From: a bacterium
GTDB taxonomy: Bacteria > Chloroflexota > Dormibacteria > Aeolococcales > Bog-877
Reading direction: 5' to 3'
Length of the DNA stretch: 64,000 bases
NCBI GenBank assembly: GCA_021791415.1
Contig: JAJYWQ010000044.1
Span: 12,401-76,400, forward strand
This document shows positions 2,176 through 12,764 of this stretch, piece after piece (the stretch's first letter is position 1; each line of letters opens with the position of its first letter). A model generated the notes under the pieces. That model had not been told where the DNA came from, ran no database searches, and saw only the letters and a program-made list of their open reading frames with translations. Made by a program: the position numbers and the translations under genes.

Positions 2176-3885
2176 GTGACGGTAGGCGATATCGCGCGGA
2201 AGGGGCAGGGCCGAAGGTCCCGCGAATCTCGGGACCTTCGGCCCCTCTCCCCTGCTACAGTTCTGATCTGTCCAGTGGCCAGCGCCAGCCCCGATCGCCG
2301 TGACCTGCTGCTGGAGGCGGGCCTGGCGCTCACCTCCGAGCTTTCGCTCCCATCGCTTCTGCGGCGGATCGTGAGGCTCGCCTGCCAGCTCACTGACGCG
2401 AGGTATGGGGCGCTCGGCGTCCTCGGTCCCGGGGGCGGGATCTCGCAGTTCGTCACCCACGGCGTCAGCGCCGTTGAACGGGGCCGGATCGGGCGTCTTC
2501 CAGAGGGCCGGGGTATCCTGGGGGCCCTGCTGCGACCCGGTCCGCCGCTGCGCCTGGACGACCTCGGCTCAGATTCCCGATCGGTTGGCTTCCCGCCCCA
2601 TCACCCGCCCATGCGCTCATTTCTGGGAGCGCCGGTGGTGATTCGTCGGACCGTCTTCGGGAGCATCTACCTCACCGAGAAGCAGGGCGGGCTGCCCTTC
2701 ACCGCGGACGACCAGCTGTCACTGGAGGTCCTCGCGGGCCAGGCGGCGGTGGCCGTCGCCAACGCCACCCTGTACCAGAGGGCCGTGTCCCGCCAGCGCT
2801 GGCTGGCAGCGCTCCGGGAGGTGGCCCAGGCCACCATCACCGGAGGCGAGCCGTCCGAGGCTCTGCGGCTGGTGGCCGCGTACAGCCGGGAGCTGATCGG
2901 TGGCGGAGCCGCCCTTTTGGCTCGCACCGACGGCGGCATTCGACAGGAGCCCGAGGTGCTGGCCGCCGCCGGTCCGGGGGCCAGGAGCCTCGCCCGGCGG
3001 CTGGGCGCTGCCACCCGGGATCCCGTCGCCGGGGCGGTCCGGCGGGGGCGGCAGTTGGTGATCCAGGTCCCGGCTGCGACCCGAACCGGACGGAGCCCAG
3101 GGACGGCGCCGCTGGCGGTCCTGCCATTCGGGCAAGGGGGGCCCAATCGAGGCGTCCTGCTGGCCTTGGGAGCGGCGGGAGCGCCGCTGCCCGAAGAGGA
3201 GGCTGTCGAGATGCTCACCGCGCTGGCCGCCCAGACCGCCGTGGCCCTGCAGTTTCAGCAGAGCCAGAGCGAGCGGCAGCGGCTGGCCCTGCTGGACGAG
3301 CGGGAGAGGATCGCCAAAGAGCTCCACGACGGGGTGATTCAGTCCCTGTTCGCCGTCGGCATGGGGTTGCAGGCCGTGGCTCCAGCCACAGACGACGTCA
3401 CCCGCCAGCGGCTCGAACGGGCGGTGCTGGAGCTCGACCAGGTCATCGGCGACCTGCGCCAGTACATATTCGGGCTCCGACCAGGCATCCTGGGATCCAG
3501 CCGGCTGGCTGATGCCATGCGCCGCCTGGGGGAGGATTTCCAGGACCGATGCGGGGTCCACACGGTGGTGGAGGTGGACTCAGAGGTGGAGGCGCGGCTC
3601 GGCGCCCAGGCGGGCGAGCTGCTCCAGCTGACGCGAGAGGCCCTTTCCAACGTCGGCCGGCACGCCCAGGCCACCAGCTGCCGGGTGCGCGCCCGGGCCC
3701 AGGCGAGGTCCACTGTGGTCACCATCTCCGACGACGGTCGGGGCTTCGCCGTCCGCAGGGCCCGCGGCCGGGGCCAGGGCCTGCAGAACATGCGGGACCG
3801 AGCCCGGGGCATCGGTGGCAGGCTGGCGATCACCTCGGCCCCCGGCCGGGGCGCCCGCCTGCGGCTGGTGGTGCCCCATGGCTGA
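2176..3885 (+). CDS. DosS/DosT (DevS)-like sensor histidine kinase with two GAF domains, HisKA_3 and HATPase
   Basis: GAF-A contains GFPPHHPPMRSFLGAPV, as in the DosS/DosT haem pocket. HisKA_3 box ERERIAKELHDGVIQSLF. C-terminal ATPase motifs present. Start uncertain (GTG 2176 or GTG about 2275). The 3' end overlaps the response regulator start by 8 nt. Confidence 0.8.
   Translation: MTVGDIARKGQGRRSRESRDLRPLSPATVLICPVASASPDRRDLLLEAGLALTSELSLPSLLRRIVRLACQLTDARYGALGVLGPGGGISQFVTHGVSAVERGRIGRLPEGRGILGALLRPGPPLRLDDLGSDSRSVGFPPHHPPMRSFLGAPVVIRRTVFGSIYLTEKQGGLPFTADDQLSLEVLAGQAAVAVANATLYQRAVSRQRWLAALREVAQATITGGEPSEALRLVAAYSRELIGGGAALLARTDGGIRQEPEVLAAAGPGARSLARRLGAATRDPVAGAVRRGRQLVIQVPAATRTGRSPGTAPLAVLPFGQGGPNRGVLLALGAAGAPLPEEEAVEMLTALAAQTAVALQFQQSQSERQRLALLDERERIAKELHDGVIQSLFAVGMGLQAVAPATDDVTRQRLERAVLELDQVIGDLRQYIFGLRPGILGSSRLADAMRRLGEDFQDRCGVHTVVEVDSEVEARLGAQAGELLQLTREALSNVGRHAQATSCRVRARAQARSTVVTISDDGRGFAVRRARGRGQGLQNMRDRARGIGGRLAITSAPGRGARLRLVVPHG
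2208..2244. promoter_or_regulatory. Perfect 15 bp inverted repeat with a 7 nt loop, in the divergent intergenic region or 5' leader
   Basis: GGGCCGAAGGTCCCG cgaatct CGGGACCTTCGGCCC. Sits between the NapH-like start (2135, minus) and the DosS-like kinase start (2176 GTG or about 2275 GTG, plus). Confidence 0.4.
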
Positions 3886-4546
3886 GGAACCGCCGCCCAG
3901 CCGGTTGCGGGTGATGCTGGTGGACGACCACGAGCTGGTCCGCGACGGCCTCCGCGCGGTCCTGGGCGCCTCCGGGGAGTTCGACATCGTCGCCGAGGCC
4001 GCGGACGAGGCTGGGGCGATCCGGGAGTTCGAACGCACCAGCCCCGACGTCGTCCTGATGGACGTGCGCCTGGGGTCGGGAAGTGGGATCGAGGCGACCC
4101 GTGAGATGCGGGCCCGCAGGCCCGAAACGAAAGTCCTCATGCTCACCTCCTTCGCCGACGACGAGGCGCTTTTCGCCTCGGTCATGGCCGGCGCGGCCGG
4201 TTACCTCCTGAAGCAGATCCGCGGTGGGGAGATCGTGGCCGCGGTCCGGGCCATCGGAGCCGGTGGAAGCCTGCTGGACCCGGCGCTCACCCGGACCGTC
4301 CTGGACCAGTGGCGAGAGGCCAGAAGCCGGCTCCGCGACGAACGGCTGGCGCGCCTCTCAGCCCAGGAGGAGCGCATCCTGAGCCGGGTGGCCGCAGGGC
4401 GCACCAATCGGGAGATCGCCGCCGAGCTTCACCTGGCCGAAAAGACCGTCAAGAACTACGTCTCCAGCATCCTGGACAAGCTGGAGGTGGCCCGGCGAGC
4501 TGAGGCCGCCGCCTACTTGGCGCGCCACGGGCGGTCCACGTCCTGA
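3878..4546 (+). CDS. NarL/LuxR-family response regulator (DosR/DevR-like)
   Basis: MAEEPPPSRLRVMLVDDHELVRDGL receiver domain. C-terminal LuxR HTH (REIAAELHLAEKTVKNYVSSILDKL). Overlaps the kinase stop (ATGGCTGA). Confidence 0.85.
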   Translation: MAEEPPPSRLRVMLVDDHELVRDGLRAVLGASGEFDIVAEAADEAGAIREFERTSPDVVLMDVRLGSGSGIEATREMRARRPETKVLMLTSFADDEALFASVMAGAAGYLLKQIRGGEIVAAVRAIGAGGSLLDPALTRTVLDQWREARSRLRDERLARLSAQEERILSRVAAGRTNREIAAELHLAEKTVKNYVSSILDKLEVARRAEAAAYLARHGRSTS

Positions 4547-4663: not shown

Positions 4664-5356
4664 TCAGCCCGTCGGCCGGGGCGTCTTCCCACCGTCCCGG
4701 GGCGGAGCCCAAGCCACCGCGGACTCCGCGGCCGCCAACGCAGTCGCGGCGTGGGGGGCGGAGACGCCCCGGTGCGGCTCCAAGACCCGGTCTATGATCC
4801 CGTACTCGACGGCCTCGGTCGCGGTGAGGAAGTAGTCCCGGTCGATGTCCCGCTCGACCTGACCCAGGGGCCGACCGGAGTGGTGGGCGATGATCTCCGC
4901 CATCCGCCGGGTGTTGGCCAGCACCTCGCGCAGCTGGATCTCCATGTCCCGGGGCGCGCCGCGTGTTCCGGCGGTGCCTTGGTGGATCATGATCTTGCTG
5001 CTGGGGAGCGCCATCCGCCTTCCGGCGGCCCCCCCGCACAGAATCATCGCGGCGGCCGACATCCCCATCCCGATACAGGTGGTGGCCACTGGACAGCTCA
5101 CCTGCTGCATCACGTCGTAAATCGCGAAGCCGGCGTATGCCAATCCCCCGGGCGAGTTGATGTAGAGCTGGATCTCGCTCTCCGGGTCCTGGGCCTCCAG
5201 GTACAGCATCTCCGCGACCAGCAGGTTGGCAACCCGGTCGTCGACCTCCTCGCCCAGGAATAGGATGCGCTCCTTCACCAGCAGGGAGTAGATGTCGAAG
5301 GCCCGCTCCCCCCTGGCCGAACTGTCCAGGACCGTCGGCACCAAGCCGGCGGTCAC
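4664..5356 (-). CDS. clpP: ATP-dependent Clp protease proteolytic subunit ClpP (catalytically intact)
   Basis: ERILFLG...YINSPGG...GMGMSAAA...MIHQ...DIDRD carries the Ser-His-Asp triad. GTG start at 5356 has GGAG 8 nt upstream. The AT-rich MIYF... extension in the track has atypical codon usage. About 45 aa C-terminal Ala/Pro-rich tail. Confidence 0.85.
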   Translation of the reverse strand: MTAGLVPTVLDSSARGERAFDIYSLLVKERILFLGEEVDDRVANLLVAEMLYLEAQDPESEIQLYINSPGGLAYAGFAIYDVMQQVSCPVATTCIGMGMSAAAMILCGGAAGRRMALPSSKIMIHQGTAGTRGAPRDMEIQLREVLANTRRMAEIIAHHSGRPLGQVERDIDRDYFLTATEAVEYGIIDRVLEPHRGVSAPHAATALAAAESAVAWAPPRDGGKTPRPTG

Positions 5357-5470: not shown

Positions 5471-5731
5471 GTGACGGGGCGCAGGCACGAAACCCCCTTC
5501 CCTGGGTTCCAGGAGATGGCGGAGCGGCGCCGGCACCTGGGAGGCCAGCTCGCCGCCCGCCGGCTGGCTGCGGGACTTTCGCAGACGGAGCTCGCTGCCC
5601 GCATGGGCACCTCGCAGTCCGCTGTGGCGCGGCTGGAGGCGGGGAAGGCGGACGTCCGGATTTCCACGGTGACCAGGTACGCGCGGGCCCTGGCGCTCCA
5701 GGTGGAGATCACCCTGGGGGAACGTGGCTGA
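5471..5731 (+). CDS. XRE-family helix-turn-helix transcriptional regulator (ClgR-like)
   Basis: LSQTELAARMGTSQSAVARLEAG HTH. GTG start has GGGGAG upstream. Divergent from clpP. Stop overlaps the downstream ClpP-like gene. Confidence 0.6.
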   Translation: MTGRRHETPFPGFQEMAERRRHLGGQLAARRLAAGLSQTELAARMGTSQSAVARLEAGKADVRISTVTRYARALALQVEITLGERG

Positions 5732-6302
5732 GGAGGGGGCCCCGCCGGTCTGGGCCCTTCTGCAAGAGGAGCTGTCGGCCCGGGGGATGATCCTGATCCA
5801 GGGACACCTGGACCATCAGCTGGCCACCCGCGCGGCTGCCCAGCTGATGGAGTGTGACGCCGTCTCCGACGCGCCCGCTCGCATCCACCTGTTCACCTCG
5901 TCCGGGGAGTTCGGCTGCGCCCTCACGCTCATGGACACGATCACGGCGCTGGGCATACCGACCGAGGTCACGGCGGTGGGGGCGGTGCAGGGCCCTGGCC
6001 TTGGTGTGCTGGCGGTCGCCGACCGCCGGGTGGCAACACCCAACTGCCGGCTCGCCTTCGCCGCCCCTCGACTGCAGTTGGACGGGGACCTGACCGAGCT
6101 GACCGGACTCCTAGACGCCGAGTTGCGAGATCAGCAGCGGTGGACAGAGCAGGTGGCCCAAGCCACCGGGCGGCCGCTCGAGCTCGTGGAGGCGGACCTC
6201 GCCACCGCCCTCACCCTCGCGCCGGAAGCGGCCCTGCGCTACCGGCTGATCGACGAGGTGCTGGCCGCCTCCCCCGGGCCCTCGAGGGGATCGCTGAGGT
6301 AG
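5725..6302 (+). CDS. ClpP-family paralog lacking the catalytic triad (ClpR-like pseudo-protease)
   Basis: LLQEELSARGMILIQGHLDHQLA...LFTSSGEFGCALTLMDTI aligns with the ClpP fold. The active-site Ser, His and Asp positions are replaced (GAVQGPG, RLAFAAP). Overlaps the XRE regulator stop by 7 nt. Confidence 0.6.
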
Positions 6303-6660
6303 GGATCGGGCGGCTCGCCTCCACCGACCGCCAACCGGGCGGGAGGCAGGTCACTGGAGCGCTCCGCCAGGCCGAGGATCTGATCACCGATCCCCTGGTG
6401 GCGGAGCACGTCCCACCCGGCCTCAGGCTCCAGCGGGGTGGTGGCGACGACCTGATCACCCTCGACATGAACGTTCCAACCCAGGTTCTCCAGCCGCCGG
6501 AGCACCGGCGAGAGGATGGCCGCGCGGTCGTGGATCTGCTTGGCGGCGGCGGCTATCCGCACCGAAACCGGGAGGTCCGCGGGGGTGGGCCTGTCGGGGA
6601 AGCCGAAGGAGTGCATCTCCATGTACGTTTCCATGTGCCGGGAGATGGGCTCCCGGGTCA
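6239..6660 (-). CDS. Hypothetical protein, last gene of the bd-like/Rieske-b operon
   Basis: In-frame tail of track ORF 6239..7402 after the CydA-like stop at 6709. GTG about 6660 has GGTGAGGAG 9 nt upstream. High GC3. No recognisable motifs. Confidence 0.3.
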
Positions 6661-6708
6661 CCTCGCGGAGCTCCTCACCCGCCCGCCGGATGGGCCGGAA
6701 GACCAGCC

Positions 6709-8100
6709 TCACGGTCCGGTCCTGGTGGGCACCATGACCCCCAGATTGCTCGCCGGACCATTGAGGGCCGGGCCGCTGGTGGAGGGCGGCGTGTAATTCT
6801 GCTGCTGATTGATGAGCATGTGGTTGGTGATCAGGAAGGGGCCCCGGCTGTCCTCGCGGATGTAACCCATCAGAGCCATGATCAGGGAGATGGCCACCCC
6901 CACGGTGATGAGGGAGATGGCCTGTCCCCGCCCGGCGTCCCCCCAGTGCAGCCGGCCTCGGGAGAGATGGACGGCGTAGACGGTGATCGCGGTGATGGTC
7001 ACCCCGGTGAAGACGATGAGGGCCGTGAGCTTCCAGGGGATCATCTGCCCCCAGGGGATGAGCAGCCCCCCCTGCCAGATGGGGACATTGGCGTTGGCGG
7101 CGAAGACGCTCTCGTAGCTCCAGGCCAGCGACGAAGGGGTGGAGATCAGCAACCAGGCCGCGAAGGAGAGAGCGGTGCACACCGCCAGCGCCGGCGAGCG
7201 GAAGCCGCTGACCCGAACCCGGCGCCAGAGGTAGAAGATCCCCACGGTGAAGATCGCCCCCAGGAGGAACACCTGGAAGAGGAAGGCCACCGACAGCCCG
7301 CCCAGCATCATCTCGTACCAGGAGGCATAGGCGTGGAGCTGGATCTCCTTGGCGTACTCCCACCCGACCAGGGGCTGGGCGATCGTGAACCCCACCGCCC
7401 ACATCAGCCCGTAGTGGCCCATCCAGTCCAGGTAGGCACGATGCAACTGCTGCCGGGAACGCCAGAGCAGGCGGATCCCCGCCACCAGCGCCACCATCGC
7501 CCCGGCGAAGGCGATGTTGCCGACGAAGCGGTGCATCTCCAGAGGGATCTCTGTGGGGTTCATGAGGATGAGCGGCAGGTTGAAGGCCGGACGGGGCGTG
7601 AGCATGTAGGAGGCCACCACGTTGATCATCAGCATCTGGATGCTGGCGTTGATGAAGAGGAGGATCTCCAGCCCCACCCGCAGCCCCCTCACCCGTCCCA
7701 GCCGGTCCCAGCGCGCATAGAGCGGGTAGAGGCAGATGATCTCGCCGACGAAGGCGGCGGCCTCGGCCACGAAGGGCCAGAACAGGATCCTCTCCAGGGT
7801 CACGAAGAAGTGGCTCCAGAGCCCCAGGAAGAGGATCATCACCGCGAAGATCGCCAGGGAGCCTCCCACCGCGAAGGTCGCCCCCAGGACGGTGACCAGC
7901 CCCTTGGAGAAGCGGTCGTAGTGGGGGTTGCGGCGCTTCCAGCCCATGAAGTCCGTGACCGCCAGGATTATGTACCCGCCCTGCTGAAAGGCCGCGAACT
8001 GAATGTGGCCGAGCATCAGCAGGGCGACCAGGGCGGTCGCCACGCCGGTGGAGATCGGGACCGGGGTGAGCTGGGGGGTGGAAGCGAGGATCAAGTGCAT
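6709..8100 (-). CDS. Cytochrome bd-family subunit I (CydA-like) paralog 2
   Basis: Polytopic membrane protein with the CydA signature WDRLG (PLYARWDRLGRVRGL). Start is 1 nt after the cytochrome b stop. Confidence 0.7.
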   Translation of the reverse strand: MHLILASTPQLTPVPISTGVATALVALLMLGHIQFAAFQQGGYIILAVTDFMGWKRRNPHYDRFSKGLVTVLGATFAVGGSLAIFAVMILFLGLWSHFFVTLERILFWPFVAEAAAFVGEIICLYPLYARWDRLGRVRGLRVGLEILLFINASIQMLMINVVASYMLTPRPAFNLPLILMNPTEIPLEMHRFVGNIAFAGAMVALVAGIRLLWRSRQQLHRAYLDWMGHYGLMWAVGFTIAQPLVGWEYAKEIQLHAYASWYEMMLGGLSVAFLFQVFLLGAIFTVGIFYLWRRVRVSGFRSPALAVCTALSFAAWLLISTPSSLAWSYESVFAANANVPIWQGGLLIPWGQMIPWKLTALIVFTGVTITAITVYAVHLSRGRLHWGDAGRGQAISLITVGVAISLIMALMGYIREDSRGPFLITNHMLINQQQNYTPPSTSGPALNGPASNLGVMVPTRTGP

Positions 8101-8101
8101 A

Positions 8102-9310
8102 TCAGAGGTTGAAGAGCCGGTTCACCGCCAGCAGCGCCTCGAAGAGGAGGAACAGCACCACGAAGAGGGCCGGGATCATAACCTCGGGGCGGCGCCAGGG
8201 CTCCCGACCCGGGGTCCGGTCGAGGAAGGGTACCAAGATCAGGAGGGTTGTCCCTATCCCCGGGACGATGAAGACCCCGACCGGGATCATCCAGGCCTGG
8301 GGGAACTGCACCAGCATCTGGTCGAGCGGAAGGAAGAACCACTCAGGGGTGGGGACGTAGTTGAGGGCGGCCGGGTTGGCGGCGCGCTCCAGGGGGGCGC
8401 CCACCACCACCGCCATGACGAAGATGAGCAGCACCAGCCCGAAGCTCACCACCGAGTCCTTGAACACCTGGGAGGGGAAGAACTCGTCGAGGTCCACCGG
8501 CACCGCGTATCCAGGGTCCGAGGGAATGGCCGGATAGGGGTACTCGACATGAGCCATCCGCCGCGCCCTCTCCTCCGCGGTCTCCTCCTCGACTCCCTCG
8601 TAGTTGACCCAGGACCCGTGCTCGCCGTGACGCCGGAGCAAGATCAGGTGCAGCCCGATGAGGGGAACCAGCAGGGCCGGCAGCAGCCAGATGTGGATGG
8701 CGAAGAAGCGTGTCAGGGTGGCCGGCCCCATCTGGGGCCCACCACGGAGGATCTCCTGCAGCTGGGTCCCGAAGATGGGGAAGTACTCGACGACATGGGT
8801 CACCACGGTCGCCGTCCAGTAGGCGGCCTGGTCCCAGGGCAGCATCGCCCCGGTGATCCCCAGCCCCAGGACCAGCAGGAACAGGACCACGCCGACTATC
8901 CAGTTGAGCTCTCGGGGCTTCTTGTAGGAGCCGCTCACGAAGGTGCGAACCATGTGCAGCCCGATGACCACGAACAGCACGTAGGCCCCCCAGAGGTGCA
9001 TCCCCCGGACGATGGCCCCGAACTCGTCGTGCCTCTCGGTGAAGTTGAGACTCTCCCAGGCCTCGGTGGTCGAGGGCACGTAGGTCCAGAGGAGGAACAT
9101 CCCGGTCACTATCTGGTTCACGATCAGGATCAGGGTCGCGCTGCCCAGGGAGTAGGCCCAGGCTCCTCGCCGGGGCACCGCCTCGTAGAGGAGCTGGTGG
9201 ACCAGGTCGGTGACCCCGAGGCGCTCGTCCACCCACCTGTAGGTGGTGGCCATCACCCCGGCGAAGGGCCGGCTCAGGCGACCTGCCAGACGGCTTCTCT
9301 CGGCGGCCAT
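8102..9310 (-). CDS. Cytochrome b (fused b6/subunit IV type) of a Rieske/b quinol oxidoreductase
   Basis: Conserved His pairs in TM helices and the PEWFFLP motif. 402 aa. Alternative start at MATTYRW (about 9253). Confidence 0.85.
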   Translation of the reverse strand: MAAERSRLAGRLSRPFAGVMATTYRWVDERLGVTDLVHQLLYEAVPRRGAWAYSLGSATLILIVNQIVTGMFLLWTYVPSTTEAWESLNFTERHDEFGAIVRGMHLWGAYVLFVVIGLHMVRTFVSGSYKKPRELNWIVGVVLFLLVLGLGITGAMLPWDQAAYWTATVVTHVVEYFPIFGTQLQEILRGGPQMGPATLTRFFAIHIWLLPALLVPLIGLHLILLRRHGEHGSWVNYEGVEEETAEERARRMAHVEYPYPAIPSDPGYAVPVDLDEFFPSQVFKDSVVSFGLVLLIFVMAVVVGAPLERAANPAALNYVPTPEWFFLPLDQMLVQFPQAWMIPVGVFIVPGIGTTLLILVPFLDRTPGREPWRRPEVMIPALFVVLFLLFEALLAVNRLFNL

Positions 9311-9313
9311 CCC

Positions 9314-9832
9314 CTACCCCTCCGTGAGCACGTTGCGGACGTACAGGGTGGTGCCCACCAGCTTGTGCTGGTAGCGGAAGAGCGGCTGCGGGGGAGGTCC
9401 CCCGATGTTGGTCCCGTCGATGCTGTAGAGGCCACCGTGGCAGGGGCAGAGGAAGACGTTGAGGTTGATGTCCCAGTGGACGTCACACTGCATGTGGGTG
9501 CAGACGTTGGACAGAGTGAGGAGCTGCACCTTGCCGTTCAGGTTGAGCTTGACCACGTAAACGGTGCGGGGAACCGGGGGCACCTGCCAGGCGTCCCCGC
9601 CCTGGTCCAACAGGACCACGTAGGCGGTGGGGACCCCGACCGGGACGTGCTGGATGTCGGCCACCATCACCCAGGGGTAGCGACCCTTGTAGAAGGCGGG
9701 GCTGAGGATCGATCCCACGATCGGGGCCCCGATGAGGAGGCCGATCCCCGCACCTGTCACCTGGATGCCCAGGGTCATGAACTTGCGCCGCGACATCCGG
9801 CGCTGTGAGATGGCCAACTCTTGGTCAGGCAC
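9314..9832 (-). CDS. Rieske [2Fe-2S] protein with twin-arginine signal
   Basis: CTHMQC...CPCHGG cluster ligands. SRRKFMTLG Tat motif. GTG start at 9832, alternative ATG about 9796. Confidence 0.85.
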   Translation of the reverse strand: MPDQELAISQRRMSRRKFMTLGIQVTGAGIGLLIGAPIVGSILSPAFYKGRYPWVMVADIQHVPVGVPTAYVVLLDQGGDAWQVPPVPRTVYVVKLNLNGKVQLLTLSNVCTHMQCDVHWDINLNVFLCPCHGGLYSIDGTNIGGPPPQPLFRYQHKLVGTTLYVRNVLTEG

Positions 9833-10058
9833 TTCCGCGCACCACCAGCAGGATCAAGAGGCTGAGGCAGAGGCCAAGGAAGAAGACGAAGGTGAAGAAG
9901 CTGGCGCCCACGGCCAGCCAGCCGGACATGGTGTCCCCGGCCAGGAAGAGCTGGCGGACCCGGCGCATGGCCATCCAGAACCCGGCCAGCATGACCACGA
10001 AGAAGGAGGTGATGATCAGCCCCAGGTACCAGGCCGACTCGAAGTCCTGGTAGTTCAT
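9825..10058 (-). CDS. Small two-TM membrane protein (77 aa), translationally coupled
   Basis: MNYQDFESAWYLGLIITSFFVVMLAGFWMAM...FFTFVFFLGLCLSLLILLVV. Its ATG overlaps the upstream gene stop (ATGA) and its stop overlaps the Rieske start. Confidence 0.5.
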   Translation of the reverse strand: MNYQDFESAWYLGLIITSFFVVMLAGFWMAMRRVRQLFLAGDTMSGWLAVGASFFTFVFFLGLCLSLLILLVVRGSA

Positions 10059-11401
10059 GGGAGGGTCCCCGGCGGAGCGTTGAAGTTCTGCGCCGACTGG
10101 TGCAGGGTGAGCAGGCAGGAGGCCTGGCCGGTGCCAGCGTCTATGCCGCAGGGGAGCTTGGCATTCTCCTTCACGACCCCCATGAAGATGGTGAGGGCCA
10201 GCGCCGCCACGGCCACCGCGCCCATGGCCCGCGGGACCAGGGGCGCGAGCGGGACTGCAGCTCCCCCCCGGCGCACCTCCACGAGGTAGCGGCCAAGGTT
10301 GATCGCGGTGGCGATGAACGCCACGAAGAGTGCCGTGTAGCGCAGCCACACGAGACCTGGAGGGAGGACGGCGGCGGGCAGCGCCGTGCCCGCCATCCCC
10401 AGCAGGGAGATCGCGGTCAACCCGGCGCCCGGCCCGGAGGATGGCCCCCGGTGCAACCAGAAGACGAGGTTCGCCCCCACCACCACCACCGCCAGAAGAC
10501 CCACCTGGCCGATGAACATGCTTCCCGAGTTGAAGACGAAGAGGTTGTCGAAGGCCCCGATAGAGCTGGTCTTGATCGCCTCGGCCAGAAGGAACCCGGA
10601 GATAGGCTGGGCCAGGAGGAAGATCGACCCGATGGCGAAGGTGACCCGGCTCGTCCAGGTGTGGTACTGGCGCTCCTCCTCGGTCTTGGCACGCCTCGCC
10701 CTCCAGACGGCGATCGCCGCCAGCACCAAAGCCGACCAGGAGAGGGTGGCCCCGGCGTAGTGCAGCAGCAGCCAGGGGTAGCTCGGGGAGTACATGGCGT
10801 GGGCCGCGCTGACCGCCGTCCCCGGGGTCAGGGCAAAGCTGTCCAGCTGGACGATCATGAAGAGGAAGAGGTACTGGATCAGGGCGAAGGTGAGCCCCAC
10901 CGCCAAGTGCAGCCTGGGCCCCAGTCGATCCCAGCCGTACACGTAGAGCAGCAGCAGGGGGATGCCCACGAAGAAGCTGGCGAAGGCGATGGTCAGGGGC
11001 AGCAGCAGGAGGTTGAGCAGGGTGCCGATCAGGCGGCCGTAGAGCCCGGTCAGCAGCACCACCGCGAAGACCGCCCAGGTGGCCCCGAAGCTGTACAGAT
11101 AGAGGACCGAGTGCGACAGCCCGCGGGCATAGCGAAGGCAGTTGGGGCTGGCCCCGGGGCGCCTCCCGGCCAGCTCCATGAAGGGGGCGATCCCGGCAGC
11201 CCCGAGGATGTAGCCCACGATGGCGATGTGGATGAGGAAGGTCGCCCCGATGGCGAATTCAGCCCCCAGGGTGCCCAGAGGCAACCGGGGTTGTGGGCTC
11301 GGGAAGGCAGACAGCAGCACTGGAACCCAATGCTGACGGGCTGAGGGGGCCGAAGGCAAGCCGGGAGCGGCGCGGCGATAATCGACAGGTGCCGGAGCCA
11401 T
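10055..11401 (-). CDS. Cytochrome bd-family subunit I (CydA-like) paralog 1
   Basis: YVYGWDRLGPRLHLAVGLTFAL matches the CydA GWDRLG region. Nine or more TM helices. Start uncertain: the 11401 ATG overlaps the holA start, alternative GTG about 11320. Confidence 0.7.
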   Translation of the reverse strand: MAPAPVDYRRAAPGLPSAPSARQHWVPVLLSAFPSPQPRLPLGTLGAEFAIGATFLIHIAIVGYILGAAGIAPFMELAGRRPGASPNCLRYARGLSHSVLYLYSFGATWAVFAVVLLTGLYGRLIGTLLNLLLLPLTIAFASFFVGIPLLLLYVYGWDRLGPRLHLAVGLTFALIQYLFLFMIVQLDSFALTPGTAVSAAHAMYSPSYPWLLLHYAGATLSWSALVLAAIAVWRARRAKTEEERQYHTWTSRVTFAIGSIFLLAQPISGFLLAEAIKTSSIGAFDNLFVFNSGSMFIGQVGLLAVVVVGANLVFWLHRGPSSGPGAGLTAISLLGMAGTALPAAVLPPGLVWLRYTALFVAFIATAINLGRYLVEVRRGGAAVPLAPLVPRAMGAVAVAALALTIFMGVVKENAKLPCGIDAGTGQASCLLTLHQSAQNFNAPPGTLP

Positions 11402-12339
11402 TGGTCCTACTCCACGGAGAGGACCGCTACCTGGTCACCGAGGCCGCGGCGTCCCTCCGCGATCAACTGGTGGCGGAGATGGGGTCCGAACTGGGGCTGG
11501 AGGAGTTCCGGGACCTCTCTGACGGGGACGCCATCGAGAGGAGCCTGGCCAGCCCCCCGTTCCTGGCGCTGCGCCGGGTGGTGGTCCTCTGGGACCCGCA
11601 GGTCGGGCCCCGCGGGTCGCGAGAGACCGAGGACCTACTCCGCGCGATCTCCCACCGGGCAGACACCACGGCGGTGATCGTCGTGGTGCGGGCCCTGGTT
11701 CCGGCCACCAACAACCTGCCTCGCGGCCTGCGCGAGCTCGGAGCGGAGGTGCGGCTGGTCCCGCGGCCCAAGGGCGCCGCGCTCCGGCATCACGTCGATC
11801 AGCGCGTGCGGGCCCACGGCCTCAACCTCGCCGCCCAACTATCGCCGAAGCTGGTGGAGATCGCCGCTGAGAGCCTGGGCCGGCTGGAGATGGAGCTGGA
11901 CAAGCTGGCGCTGTATCCCGACAGGGCCGGGGAGCCGGTCGGCGAGGAGGTGGGCTACCGGCTCCTGACCCCGGTGCCCCCGCGCGAGCTCTACCGGCTG
12001 ACAGATGCGATCTTCGAAGCGCCCAGCCGGGTGGGAAGCCTCCTCTCCGGGCTGCTTTCGCGCCCCGAGGTGCCCCCCCAACTGGTGATCGGTGCGCTGG
12101 CCAGGGCCCTCCGGGACCTCATCGCCGCGGCCGACGGCGGCTCCGGCGCCCTCCCGTCCTGGAAGGCCGAGCGGATGAGTCGCCAGTTGAGACGAGCCGG
12201 GGCACCGCGGCTGCGCCGCTGGCTGGTGGCCCTGGCCGACCTCGACTGGGAGATTCGCGTGGGTCGACTTGACGCCATCCAGGGGCTGGAGACGTTACTG
12301 GCCCACATGGCGGCGGAGCTGTCGCCCCGCGCCGGCTGA
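11389..12339 (+). CDS. holA: DNA polymerase III delta subunit
   Basis: PLVLLHGEDRYLVTEAA N-terminus. Conserved holA-rpsT neighbourhood. Confidence 0.6.
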   Translation: MPEPLVLLHGEDRYLVTEAAASLRDQLVAEMGSELGLEEFRDLSDGDAIERSLASPPFLALRRVVVLWDPQVGPRGSRETEDLLRAISHRADTTAVIVVVRALVPATNNLPRGLRELGAEVRLVPRPKGAALRHHVDQRVRAHGLNLAAQLSPKLVEIAAESLGRLEMELDKLALYPDRAGEPVGEEVGYRLLTPVPPRELYRLTDAIFEAPSRVGSLLSGLLSRPEVPPQLVIGALARALRDLIAAADGGSGALPSWKAERMSRQLRRAGAPRLRRWLVALADLDWEIRVGRLDAIQGLETLLAHMAAELSPRAG

Positions 12340-12341
12340 CC

Positions 12342-12764
12342 TCAGTCGCGCTCCGCTTCGGACCCCGCGCTGCGCCGGCTCCGCTGCGCCGTGCGCACCG
12401 TCTTGGTGACGGGCTTGGCCTTGCCTGCCGCAGTCTTCCGCTGCGAGGCGGTGGACTTGGACCTCGTGCCCTGCGCCGCGCCGCGCCGCGCGCCGCCCGC
12501 AGTCTGAACGGCGGTGGCCGCGGCCAGGGCACGCATCAGCCGCGACTTGCGCCGGGCCACATTGCGCGGGTGGAGCACCCCGTGCTCGGCCGCCTTGTCC
12601 AGCGCCGAGGTGGCGAGACGACCGAGCTCCGGCGCCTCCTCCCCGCCCACGGCGCGGCGAGCCTTGGCCACCGCTGTGCGCACCGCGGAGCGCACGGAGC
12701 GATTCCGATCGTGCTTGCGCTCGGCGGCGCGGACCCGCTTGCGAGCTGAACTGGTGTTGGCCAA
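12342..12764 (-). CDS. rpsT: 30S ribosomal protein S20 with a basic C-terminal extension
   Basis: MANTSSARKRVRAAERKHDRNRSVRSAVRT. TTG start. Confidence 0.85.
   Translation of the reverse strand: MANTSSARKRVRAAERKHDRNRSVRSAVRTAVAKARRAVGGEEAPELGRLATSALDKAAEHGVLHPRNVARRKSRLMRALAAATAVQTAGGARRGAAQGTRSKSTASQRKTAAGKAKPVTKTVRTAQRSRRSAGSEAERD

Follow-up and report, generated by a model that had tools for sequence, protein, structure and literature searches.

When the genes for a Rieske protein and a cytochrome b lie between those of two CydA-family paralogs, with neither CydB nor a c-type cytochrome encoded beside them, where would the electrons taken from quinol go? The question is posed by six tightly packed genes on the minus strand, at positions 6239-11401 of a 64,000-nucleotide (nt) stretch of bacterial DNA (hereafter the window; assembly GCA_021791415.1, contig JAJYWQ010000044.1, forward-strand positions 12,401 to 76,400; G+C content ~70%). 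All coordinates below are those of the window. The locus is, in our judgement, probably a Dormibacterota member of the OR-N5a/b family of bd-like oxidases with a petA-petBD module, the products of which would act together as a quinol:O2 oxidoreductase free of cytochrome c; we infer the mechanism from the genes and their conserved residues. The six genes are as follows.

10055-11401, minus strand: OR-N5b-type CydA paralog, 448 residues, the 'b' partner without the proton-channel glutamates (PF01654).
9825-10058, minus strand: small membrane protein, 77 residues, with two transmembrane (TM) helices predicted from hydropathy.
9314-9832, minus strand: Rieske [2Fe-2S] protein with a twin-arginine (Tat) signal/anchor, 172 residues from GTG 9832 or 160 residues from ATG 9796 (PF00355).
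8102-9310, minus strand: cytochrome b, 402 residues, a b6-like N-terminal half fused to a subunit-IV-like C-terminal half, with seven predicted TM helices (PF00033).
6709-8100, minus strand: OR-N5a-type CydA paralog, 463 residues and ten TM helices, the presumed catalytic 'a' subunit (identified by profile and fold).
6239-6712, minus strand: soluble protein, 157 residues, coupled to the N5a gene by a GTGA overlap (recognized by this junction and a conserved N-terminus).

All six lie at the positions, and in the order (CydA-like, two-helix protein, Tat-Rieske, fused cytochrome b, CydA-like, hypothetical), given by an earlier reading of the same DNA without database searches (the sequence-only reading), and every frame carries the coding signature of the genome, with G+C fractions of 0.90-0.94 at third codon positions and 0.41-0.51 at second positions. 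The tight or overlapping junctions that it described are also borne out. The genes of the 448- and 77-residue proteins share an ATGA overlap (10058/10055); the 77-residue and Rieske genes overlap by 8 nt with the GTG 9832 start and are 28 nt apart with ATG 9796, the start chosen in public gene calls; and gaps of 3 and 1 nt separate cytochrome b from the Rieske gene and from the gene of the 463-residue protein, respectively. For the last gene the start codon is GTG 6712, which shares a GTGA overlap with the stop codon before it. This start was preferred because the first 26 residues of the 157-residue protein are conserved in distant homologs; the internal Met is not conserved there. A scan of 5900-11800 for promoters and terminators found no sigma-70-like promoter and one terminator-like hairpin, located inside the N5b coding region; as shuffled sequence gave a mean of 1.7 sites, the terminator scan is uninformative. 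The divergent upstream gene starts at 11479 in the public annotation, which leaves ~77 nt for an operon promoter. The six genes probably form one transcript.

The missing partners are not concealed in other frames. The CxxCH motif is absent from all six frames of 6100-11600 and from every coding-like open reading frame (ORF) of the window, PF02322 (CydB) has no match among the six products or eight alternative-frame ORFs, and these eight long ORFs match no Pfam family. A hidden CydB or cytochrome c was rejected on these grounds, and the absence of both is therefore taken as real; nor is a cupredoxin or c-type cytochrome encoded in the operon or elsewhere in the window. The locus is thus neither a classical cydAB nor a qcrCAB bc1, as the sequence-only reading had held.

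Both large membrane proteins belong to the CydA family. The 448-residue protein matches PF01654 (Cyt_bd_oxida_I; E = 5.4e-13, 48.7 bits versus a cut-off of 26.2) and the solved CydA chain 9r2g_A (E = 9e-6). The 463-residue protein, searched as a single sequence, has no match in Pfam or NCBIfam, and a position outside the CydA family was considered; paralogy, profile and fold all reject it. It aligns with the 448-residue protein in BLASTP (E = 1e-19, 26% identity over 418 residues). A profile built from 19 of its homologs matched six CydA sequences of the PDB, the best being 5doq_A (E = 2.8e-14), with H32, E113 and E120 aligned with H21, E101 and E108 of that Geobacillus CydA. Its AlphaFold2 model (mean predicted local distance difference test score 76.5, predicted TM-score 0.79) contains ten long helices, and the top ten Foldseek matches in the PDB are all CydA chains with a probability of 1.00, followed by CydB. 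An even number of ten helices predicts that the C-terminus of N5a lies on the same side as its periplasmic N-terminus. The WDRLG sequence, pointed out earlier as specific to CydA, is present in both proteins. Among the Pfam families that had been proposed as a check of the operon, PF01654 (for the 448-residue protein), PF00355 and PF00033 were recovered and PF02322 was absent as claimed, but the 463-residue protein lacks PF01654 and the PF00032 match is marginal.

A published family accommodates both proteins. Murali, Gennis and Hemp (bioRxiv 10.1101/2021.01.16.426971, later ISME J) divided the bd superfamily into qOR, OR-C and OR-N. They placed within OR-N the subfamilies OR-N5a and OR-N5b, with ten helices each and derived from a gene duplication, in which 'a' members keep E99 and E107 and 'b' members do not. 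Their supplement has OR-N5a/OR-N5b clustered with petA/petB/petD. The reference proteins, from Rubrobacter xylanophilus (WP_143528031.1 and WP_143528035.1), are four accessions apart, which implies three genes between them; the accessions of a 'Chloroflexi bacterium' pair (TMC48000.1 and TMC47996.1) show the same spacing, and Dormibacterota is positive in the last column of the phylum table, which we read as OR-N. The window locus resembles the R. xylanophilus system in its two ten-helix CydA paralogs, in having Rieske and cytochrome b genes between them, and in lacking a Q-loop, CydB and haem c.

The resemblance extends to individual residues. A locus scan with one genome per species returned 79 loci, and orthologs for alignment were extracted from 67 of them (N5a, n = 66; N5b, n = 52; Rieske protein, n = 59; cytochrome b, n = 59). 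Like the published OR-N5a, the 463-residue protein has equivalents of His19, Glu99, Glu107, His186 and Glu445 and a Gln at the Ser140 position. H32 is conserved in 65/66 orthologs; E113, Q155 and H190 are invariant (66/66 each); and E416 is found in 64/66, the other two being gaps, so that it is present wherever the ortholog is complete. In three Rubrobacteraceae orthologs the corresponding columns are numbered H24, E104, E111, H132, Q146 and H183 (with E406 in one of them, L067), identical to the numbering of the published OR-N5a reference. The 448-residue protein, like the published OR-N5b, keeps the His19 and His186 equivalents (H58 and H214, 52/52 orthologs) and has lost the channel glutamates: at the Glu99 site the residue is small (A139 in the window protein, A or G in mapped orthologs), and the Glu107 site holds G146 (G, T or L among orthologs), with no glutamate at either. 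M407 is invariant (52/52) and H165 nearly so (49/52), and E412, at the Glu445 position, is E in 41, T in eight and S in three, as in Table S6 of Murali et al. The Rubrobacteraceae N5b orthologs show A/G, T, W, D, S and Y at the diagnostic columns, the residue types of the published OR-N5b reference. Because their residues match the published references position by position, we assign the 463-residue protein to OR-N5a and the 448-residue protein to OR-N5b; the assignment rests on shared residues, synteny and the Rubrobacteraceae orthologs.

The sequence-only reading had not recognized this arrangement and had raised the idea of a new family or arrangement within the bd superfamily. The 463-residue protein does escape the Pfam CydA model, and it belongs to a small sequence family (at E <= 1e-3, 206 cluster representatives out of 1.84 billion); its homologs come mostly from Candidatus Dormibacterota metagenome-assembled genomes (MAGs). 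Against this, the subfamilies, the a/b pairing, the diagnostic residues and the pet context were all published in 2021, the window proteins match the published ones position by position, and identical proteins, that of the 463-residue product included, are already held by NCBI, JGI and ENA; a previously unrecognized family is very improbable, and the claim has to be given up. The accompanying guess of a cytochrome c-independent quinol:O2 complex fares better, as the same proposal had already been published for OR-N5. The arrangement is already known; what is added here is the near-invariant gene order, the petB/petD fusion in this locus, the two conserved accessory genes and the small size of the family. 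The window locus differs from the published OR-N5 reference in that petB and petD are fused, an Arg replaces the His126 equivalent and a coupled 157-residue gene follows N5a. Its N5a is only ~33% identical to the Rubrobacteraceae orthologs, the loci of which lack the two-helix ORF found here between N5b and the Rieske gene.

Compared with canonical CydAB(X) (5doq, 6rko and 7nkz), the window proteins share the fold of subunit I and the equivalents of His19, Glu99, Glu107, His186 and Glu445, but lack CydB, the Q-loop and, by the published scoring, a Met393 equivalent, and have an extra tenth helix; electrons would presumably come from a Rieske centre instead of a CydA-bound quinol. As to the Q-loop and haem ligands, which the sequence-only reading had suggested checking, the 463-residue protein has ~30 residues between TM6 and TM7 in the secondary structure of the AlphaFold2 model and hence no Q-loop, and both paralogs retain the His19 and His186 equivalents. 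The profile alignment with Escherichia coli CydA, and the CydA alignments generally, end before the Q-loop. With two His ligands in each of the two paralogs, more than the canonical three haems are possible. The loop that stands in place of the Q-loop (residues 240-269) contains the invariant or near-invariant residues Q242, P243, G246, Y249, K251, E252, H256, M264, M265 and G267, and is a candidate docking or ligand region for a b558-type haem. M264 and M265, both invariant, lie just before TM7, in the topological place of Met393, and M265 might replace it.

A second system in which two CydA-superfamily paralogs replace CydAB is the archaeal CydAA' (qOR4a/qOR4b) of Caldivirga maquilingensis. 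That enzyme contains only haem b and has been shown to reduce O2. Its qOR4a differs from N5a in keeping the quinol site and oxidizing quinol itself, in having eight TM helices and in having no Rieske/cytochrome b partner.

The two proteins encoded between the paralogs retain the redox sites of a Rieske/cytochrome b complex. The Rieske protein matches PF00355 (E = 2.1e-7) and its best, partial NCBIfam matches are to PetC of the b6f complex; cytochrome b matches PF00033 (E = 9e-47), PF00032 marginally at its C-terminus (E = 1.1e-3, 19.6 bits versus a cut-off of 20.7) and, in NCBIfam, cytochrome b6 (221 bits) and cytb6_f_IV (E = 2e-4). The NCBIfam scores of both proteins are all below the family cut-offs. 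The Rieske motifs (R15-R16, C111-x-H113-x2-C116 and C129-P-C131-H132-G-G-x-Y136) are kept in 56-59 of 59 orthologs, and C111, H113, C116, C129, C131 and H132, which provide the cluster ligands and disulfide cysteines, in all 59. Spelled out, the boxes read C-T-H-M-Q-C and C-P-C-H-G-G-x-Y, and one TM anchor is predicted. The second box has a Gly where high-potential Rieske proteins have a Ser, which suggests, on general knowledge, a lower-potential centre of the menaquinol type. In cytochrome b all four histidines that bind haem (H105/H119, separated by 13 residues, and H206/H221, separated by 14) are kept in 59/59 orthologs, and the Qo motif is P322-E323-W324-F325. Together with the conserved arginine pair, these matches uphold the earlier description of a Tat-Rieske protein and a fused cytochrome b; the cytochrome b gene is split into two ORFs in one Rubrobacteraceae locus (L063).

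By the usual marks of the bc1, b6f and bcc complexes, the Rieske boxes, the four haem histidines and a PEWY-type Qo motif are all present, and the c-type acceptor subunit is absent. The b6f complex and the Firmicute b6c menaquinol:cytochrome c reductase (QcrABC) are close in kind: they share a cytochrome b of the b6 type, in which 14 residues separate the histidines of helix D, the subunit-IV-like part, the CTHxxC...CPCHG boxes and the Tat anchor of the Rieske protein. Unlike them, the window locus has no cytochrome f or c subunit, and (S/T)LGS takes the place of CxGG with its haem-ci cysteine. The TLGS replacement also occurs in the short cytochrome b of R. xylanophilus (Dibrova et al., 2017).

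Is this module, lacking an acceptor of its own, then tied to the bd-like pair? Gene order bears on this. The synteny search that the sequence-only reading had called for covered the first 67 loci, of which 53 have the complete set, ordered N5b, Rieske, cytochrome b, N5a. In two further loci N5b was detected by tblastn after having been missed by ORF extraction, and the others are truncated at a contig end; wherever enough flanking sequence is available, all four core genes are present. Median gaps in the 53 complete loci are 4 nt between Rieske and cytochrome b and -1 nt between cytochrome b and N5a. The carriers are Dormibacterota, Chloroflexota-labelled MAGs, a few oddly labelled bins and Rubrobacteraceae, with N5a identities down to 33%, and across the three lineages the gene order is essentially invariant. 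Seven of the loci (L012, L022, L024, L025, L034, L039 and L041) bear the labels Micrarchaeaceae, Acidiferrales, Nanopelagicaceae, Verrucomicrobiia, Angelobacter, Eisenbacteria or Binatus; identity to the operons of Dormibacterota is 40-77%, and either the bins or the taxonomy look mis-assigned.

A different arrangement is found in twelve Nitrospira-type loci, where the paralogs are adjacent and pet genes are absent. One of these, from a Nitrospira MAG (L069, 884-9299), encodes actA, actB1, actB2, actC and actD/E of alternative complex III (ACIII), followed by the N5b-like/N5a-like pair; the products are a multihaem cytochrome c, a molybdopterin-like subunit, an iron-sulfur subunit, an NrfD-like ActC and an ActD fused to cytochrome c. 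This agrees with the ACIII and CydAA' context reported for Nitrospirales (PMC12342949), in which a homologous, OR-N5-type N5b-N5a pair, 27-31% identical to that of the window, adjoins a quinol-oxidizing module. The donor in Nitrospirales is ACIII with its c-type cytochromes (ActA and ActE), and the paralogs do not flank the donor genes as they do in the window. The bd-like pair has therefore been attached repeatedly to some quinol-oxidizing module.

These comparisons bear on the possibility that the operon encodes two independent, co-transcribed enzymes, namely a Rieske/cytochrome b complex with a carrier encoded elsewhere and a CydAA'-type oxidase with a donor of its own. Co-transcription is in itself no proof of a physical complex; the Nitrospira pair does without Rieske and cytochrome b proteins, and the OR-N3a/b and OR-N4a/b pairs of Murali et al. 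occur alone in genomes. Yet N5a/b has no Q-loop or quinol site and for that reason needs a donor, no acceptor subunit comes with the Rieske/cytochrome b unit, and where the pet genes are missing ACIII substitutes for them. The pet genes, moreover, always lie between the paralogs, with overlapping stops and starts, in three phylum-level lineages. Two separate enzymes are accordingly unlikely.

A single coupled machine could work as follows. Quinol, probably menaquinol, would be oxidized at the Qo site of cytochrome b (the PEWF motif). Of the two electrons, one would pass to the Tat-exported Rieske centre; the other would travel by way of haems bL and bH to the Qi site and so close a Q cycle. 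Since no c1, f or other c-type cytochrome is encoded, the head of the Rieske protein would directly reduce the haem that faces the periplasm (the b558 equivalent, with H190 of N5a and/or H214 of N5b as ligand). From there electrons would move on to the di-haem site in N5a (H32 and E416), where O2 would be reduced with protons supplied through the E113/E120 channel; N5b would serve as a structural stand-in for CydB, the two-helix protein as an extra membrane subunit and the 157-residue protein as an accessory or assembly factor. Overall, the charge separation of a Q cycle would be added to that of a bd-type oxidase. Coupling of the modules is supported by the overlapping and 1-3 nt junctions, the conserved gaps in 53 loci, the lack of an alternative carrier and the intact redox sites.

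Textbook potentials place menaquinone at about -75 mV, low-potential Rieske centres at about +100 to +150 mV and the haems of E. coli cytochrome bd at about +170 to +260 mV, so that the electron path would run downhill. About two charges per electron would be expected, a plain bd oxidase yielding one. A Rieske/cytochrome b complex that is hard-wired to a terminal oxidase with no soluble carrier is familiar from the actinobacterial bcc-aa3 supercomplex; the link there is a di-haem cytochrome cc and the oxidase a haem-copper enzyme, whereas the window encodes no haem c and a bd-like oxidase.

Several points weigh against this proposal. E120 is kept in 48/66 N5a orthologs and replaced by Q, M or T in the other 18. 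At the His126 position, Arg, the residue of the window protein, is found in 44 and His in 22. The Met393-type sixth ligand of haem b558 was scored as absent from OR-N5a by Murali et al. Reduction of O2 is itself assumed from the conserved residues of the bd active site, and we know of no characterized precedent for direct transfer from a Rieske centre to a b-type haem. On whether the neighbourhood had been annotated and functionally characterized before, as the sequence-only reading had asked, the answer is divided: it is described and classified, but a literature search on Dormibacterota cytochrome bd, OR-N5 and bd-like oxidases with Rieske proteins yielded neither a functional study nor any biochemical, spectroscopic or structural report on an OR-N5 enzyme; the profile search likewise found no OR-N chain in the PDB. 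Finally, an OR-N5a homolog on a public 2.7-kb contig (P0052), 42% identical to the window protein, carries a C-terminal plastocyanin/azurin-type cupredoxin domain (PF00127, E = 9.5e-10) with a His, a Cys, a His and a Met that could be ligands of type-1 copper. In some lineages, then, a copper carrier may be involved. A second apparent cupredoxin fusion, in a 615-residue N5a of locus L041, proved to be a read-through of an internal stop codon; without it the protein has the usual length and lacks any additional domain.

The fusion on the short contig also fits the idea that N5a and N5b might not be an oxygen reductase at all, but a module of several b-type haems, a transmembrane or periplasm-facing wire, that replaces cytochrome c1 or f and passes electrons from the Rieske protein to a cupredoxin or to a separate terminal oxidase or reductase; the two-helix and 157-residue proteins would then be specific subunits or assembly factors of that module. 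Retention of both the His19-type and the His186-type ligand in each paralog, and the absence of the quinol site and the Met393 ligand, suit this idea. It has to contend with the residues that fit O2 chemistry, namely the invariant E113, an E416 found in every complete ortholog and the mostly kept E120, and with the lack of a cupredoxin or c-type cytochrome gene in the operon or the window; the fusion is known from that one contig. We regard a substitute for cytochrome c1 or f as unlikely, while ranking it first among the alternatives.

The terminal acceptor of a coupled complex could also be something other than O2, such as NO, H2O2 or another small oxidant, or the complex could serve mainly as a protective scavenger. 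Canonical bd oxidases are known for side activities with reactive oxygen and nitrogen species, the literature search gave no assay of any OR-N enzyme, and genes for a GAF-sensor kinase and a LuxR-type regulator with a DosS/DosR-like architecture are close by. As no sequence feature points to a different substrate and the conserved residues are those of the O2 site of bd oxidases, we consider such an acceptor or role quite improbable, and O2 reduction by the coupled complex stays our preferred reading.

The two accessory genes have a wider distribution than the window alone. A two-helix ORF of 74-112 residues with a conserved aromatic N-terminal motif fills the gap between N5b and Rieske in 49/53 complete loci; it is missing from three Rubrobacteraceae loci, where this gap is 15-18 nt. 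Downstream of N5a, the 157-residue gene is present in all of the Dormibacteria clade and, weakly, in a few loci elsewhere; a word-based search with its product returned close Dormibacterota relatives only. Neither the 77- nor the 157-residue product matches a family in Pfam or NCBIfam, and neither is named in the accessible parts of the 2021 paper. The two-helix protein is likely to be an extra membrane subunit and the 157-residue protein a cytoplasmic accessory or assembly factor.

About 1.7 kb past the 3' end of the operon lies the regulatory pair mentioned above: a sensor kinase with GAF, HisKA_3 and HATPase domains (2275-3885, plus strand) and a regulator with receiver and GerE/LuxR domains (3878-4546, plus strand), the domains being precomputed Pfam matches on an identical public contig. 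That the pair controls the operon according to oxygen or redox state is only a guess. Nearer to the operon, two ClpP-family genes (4664-5356, minus strand, and 5724-6302, plus strand) flank a small HTH_31 gene (5471-5731, plus strand); the second of them is convergent with the 157-residue gene, and the 3' ends of the two overlap by 64 nt.

If the proposed coupling is correct, the OR-N5 operon would add a third type of connection between a Rieske/cytochrome b complex and a terminal oxidase, one that dispenses with both a c-type cytochrome and a copper oxidase, and through the Q cycle it would separate roughly twice as much charge as an ordinary bd oxidase. It would then bear on two questions that had already been raised in 2021: the evolution of bc-type complexes, and energy conservation by Dormibacterota, soil Chloroflexota and Rubrobacter in oxic soils poor in nutrients.

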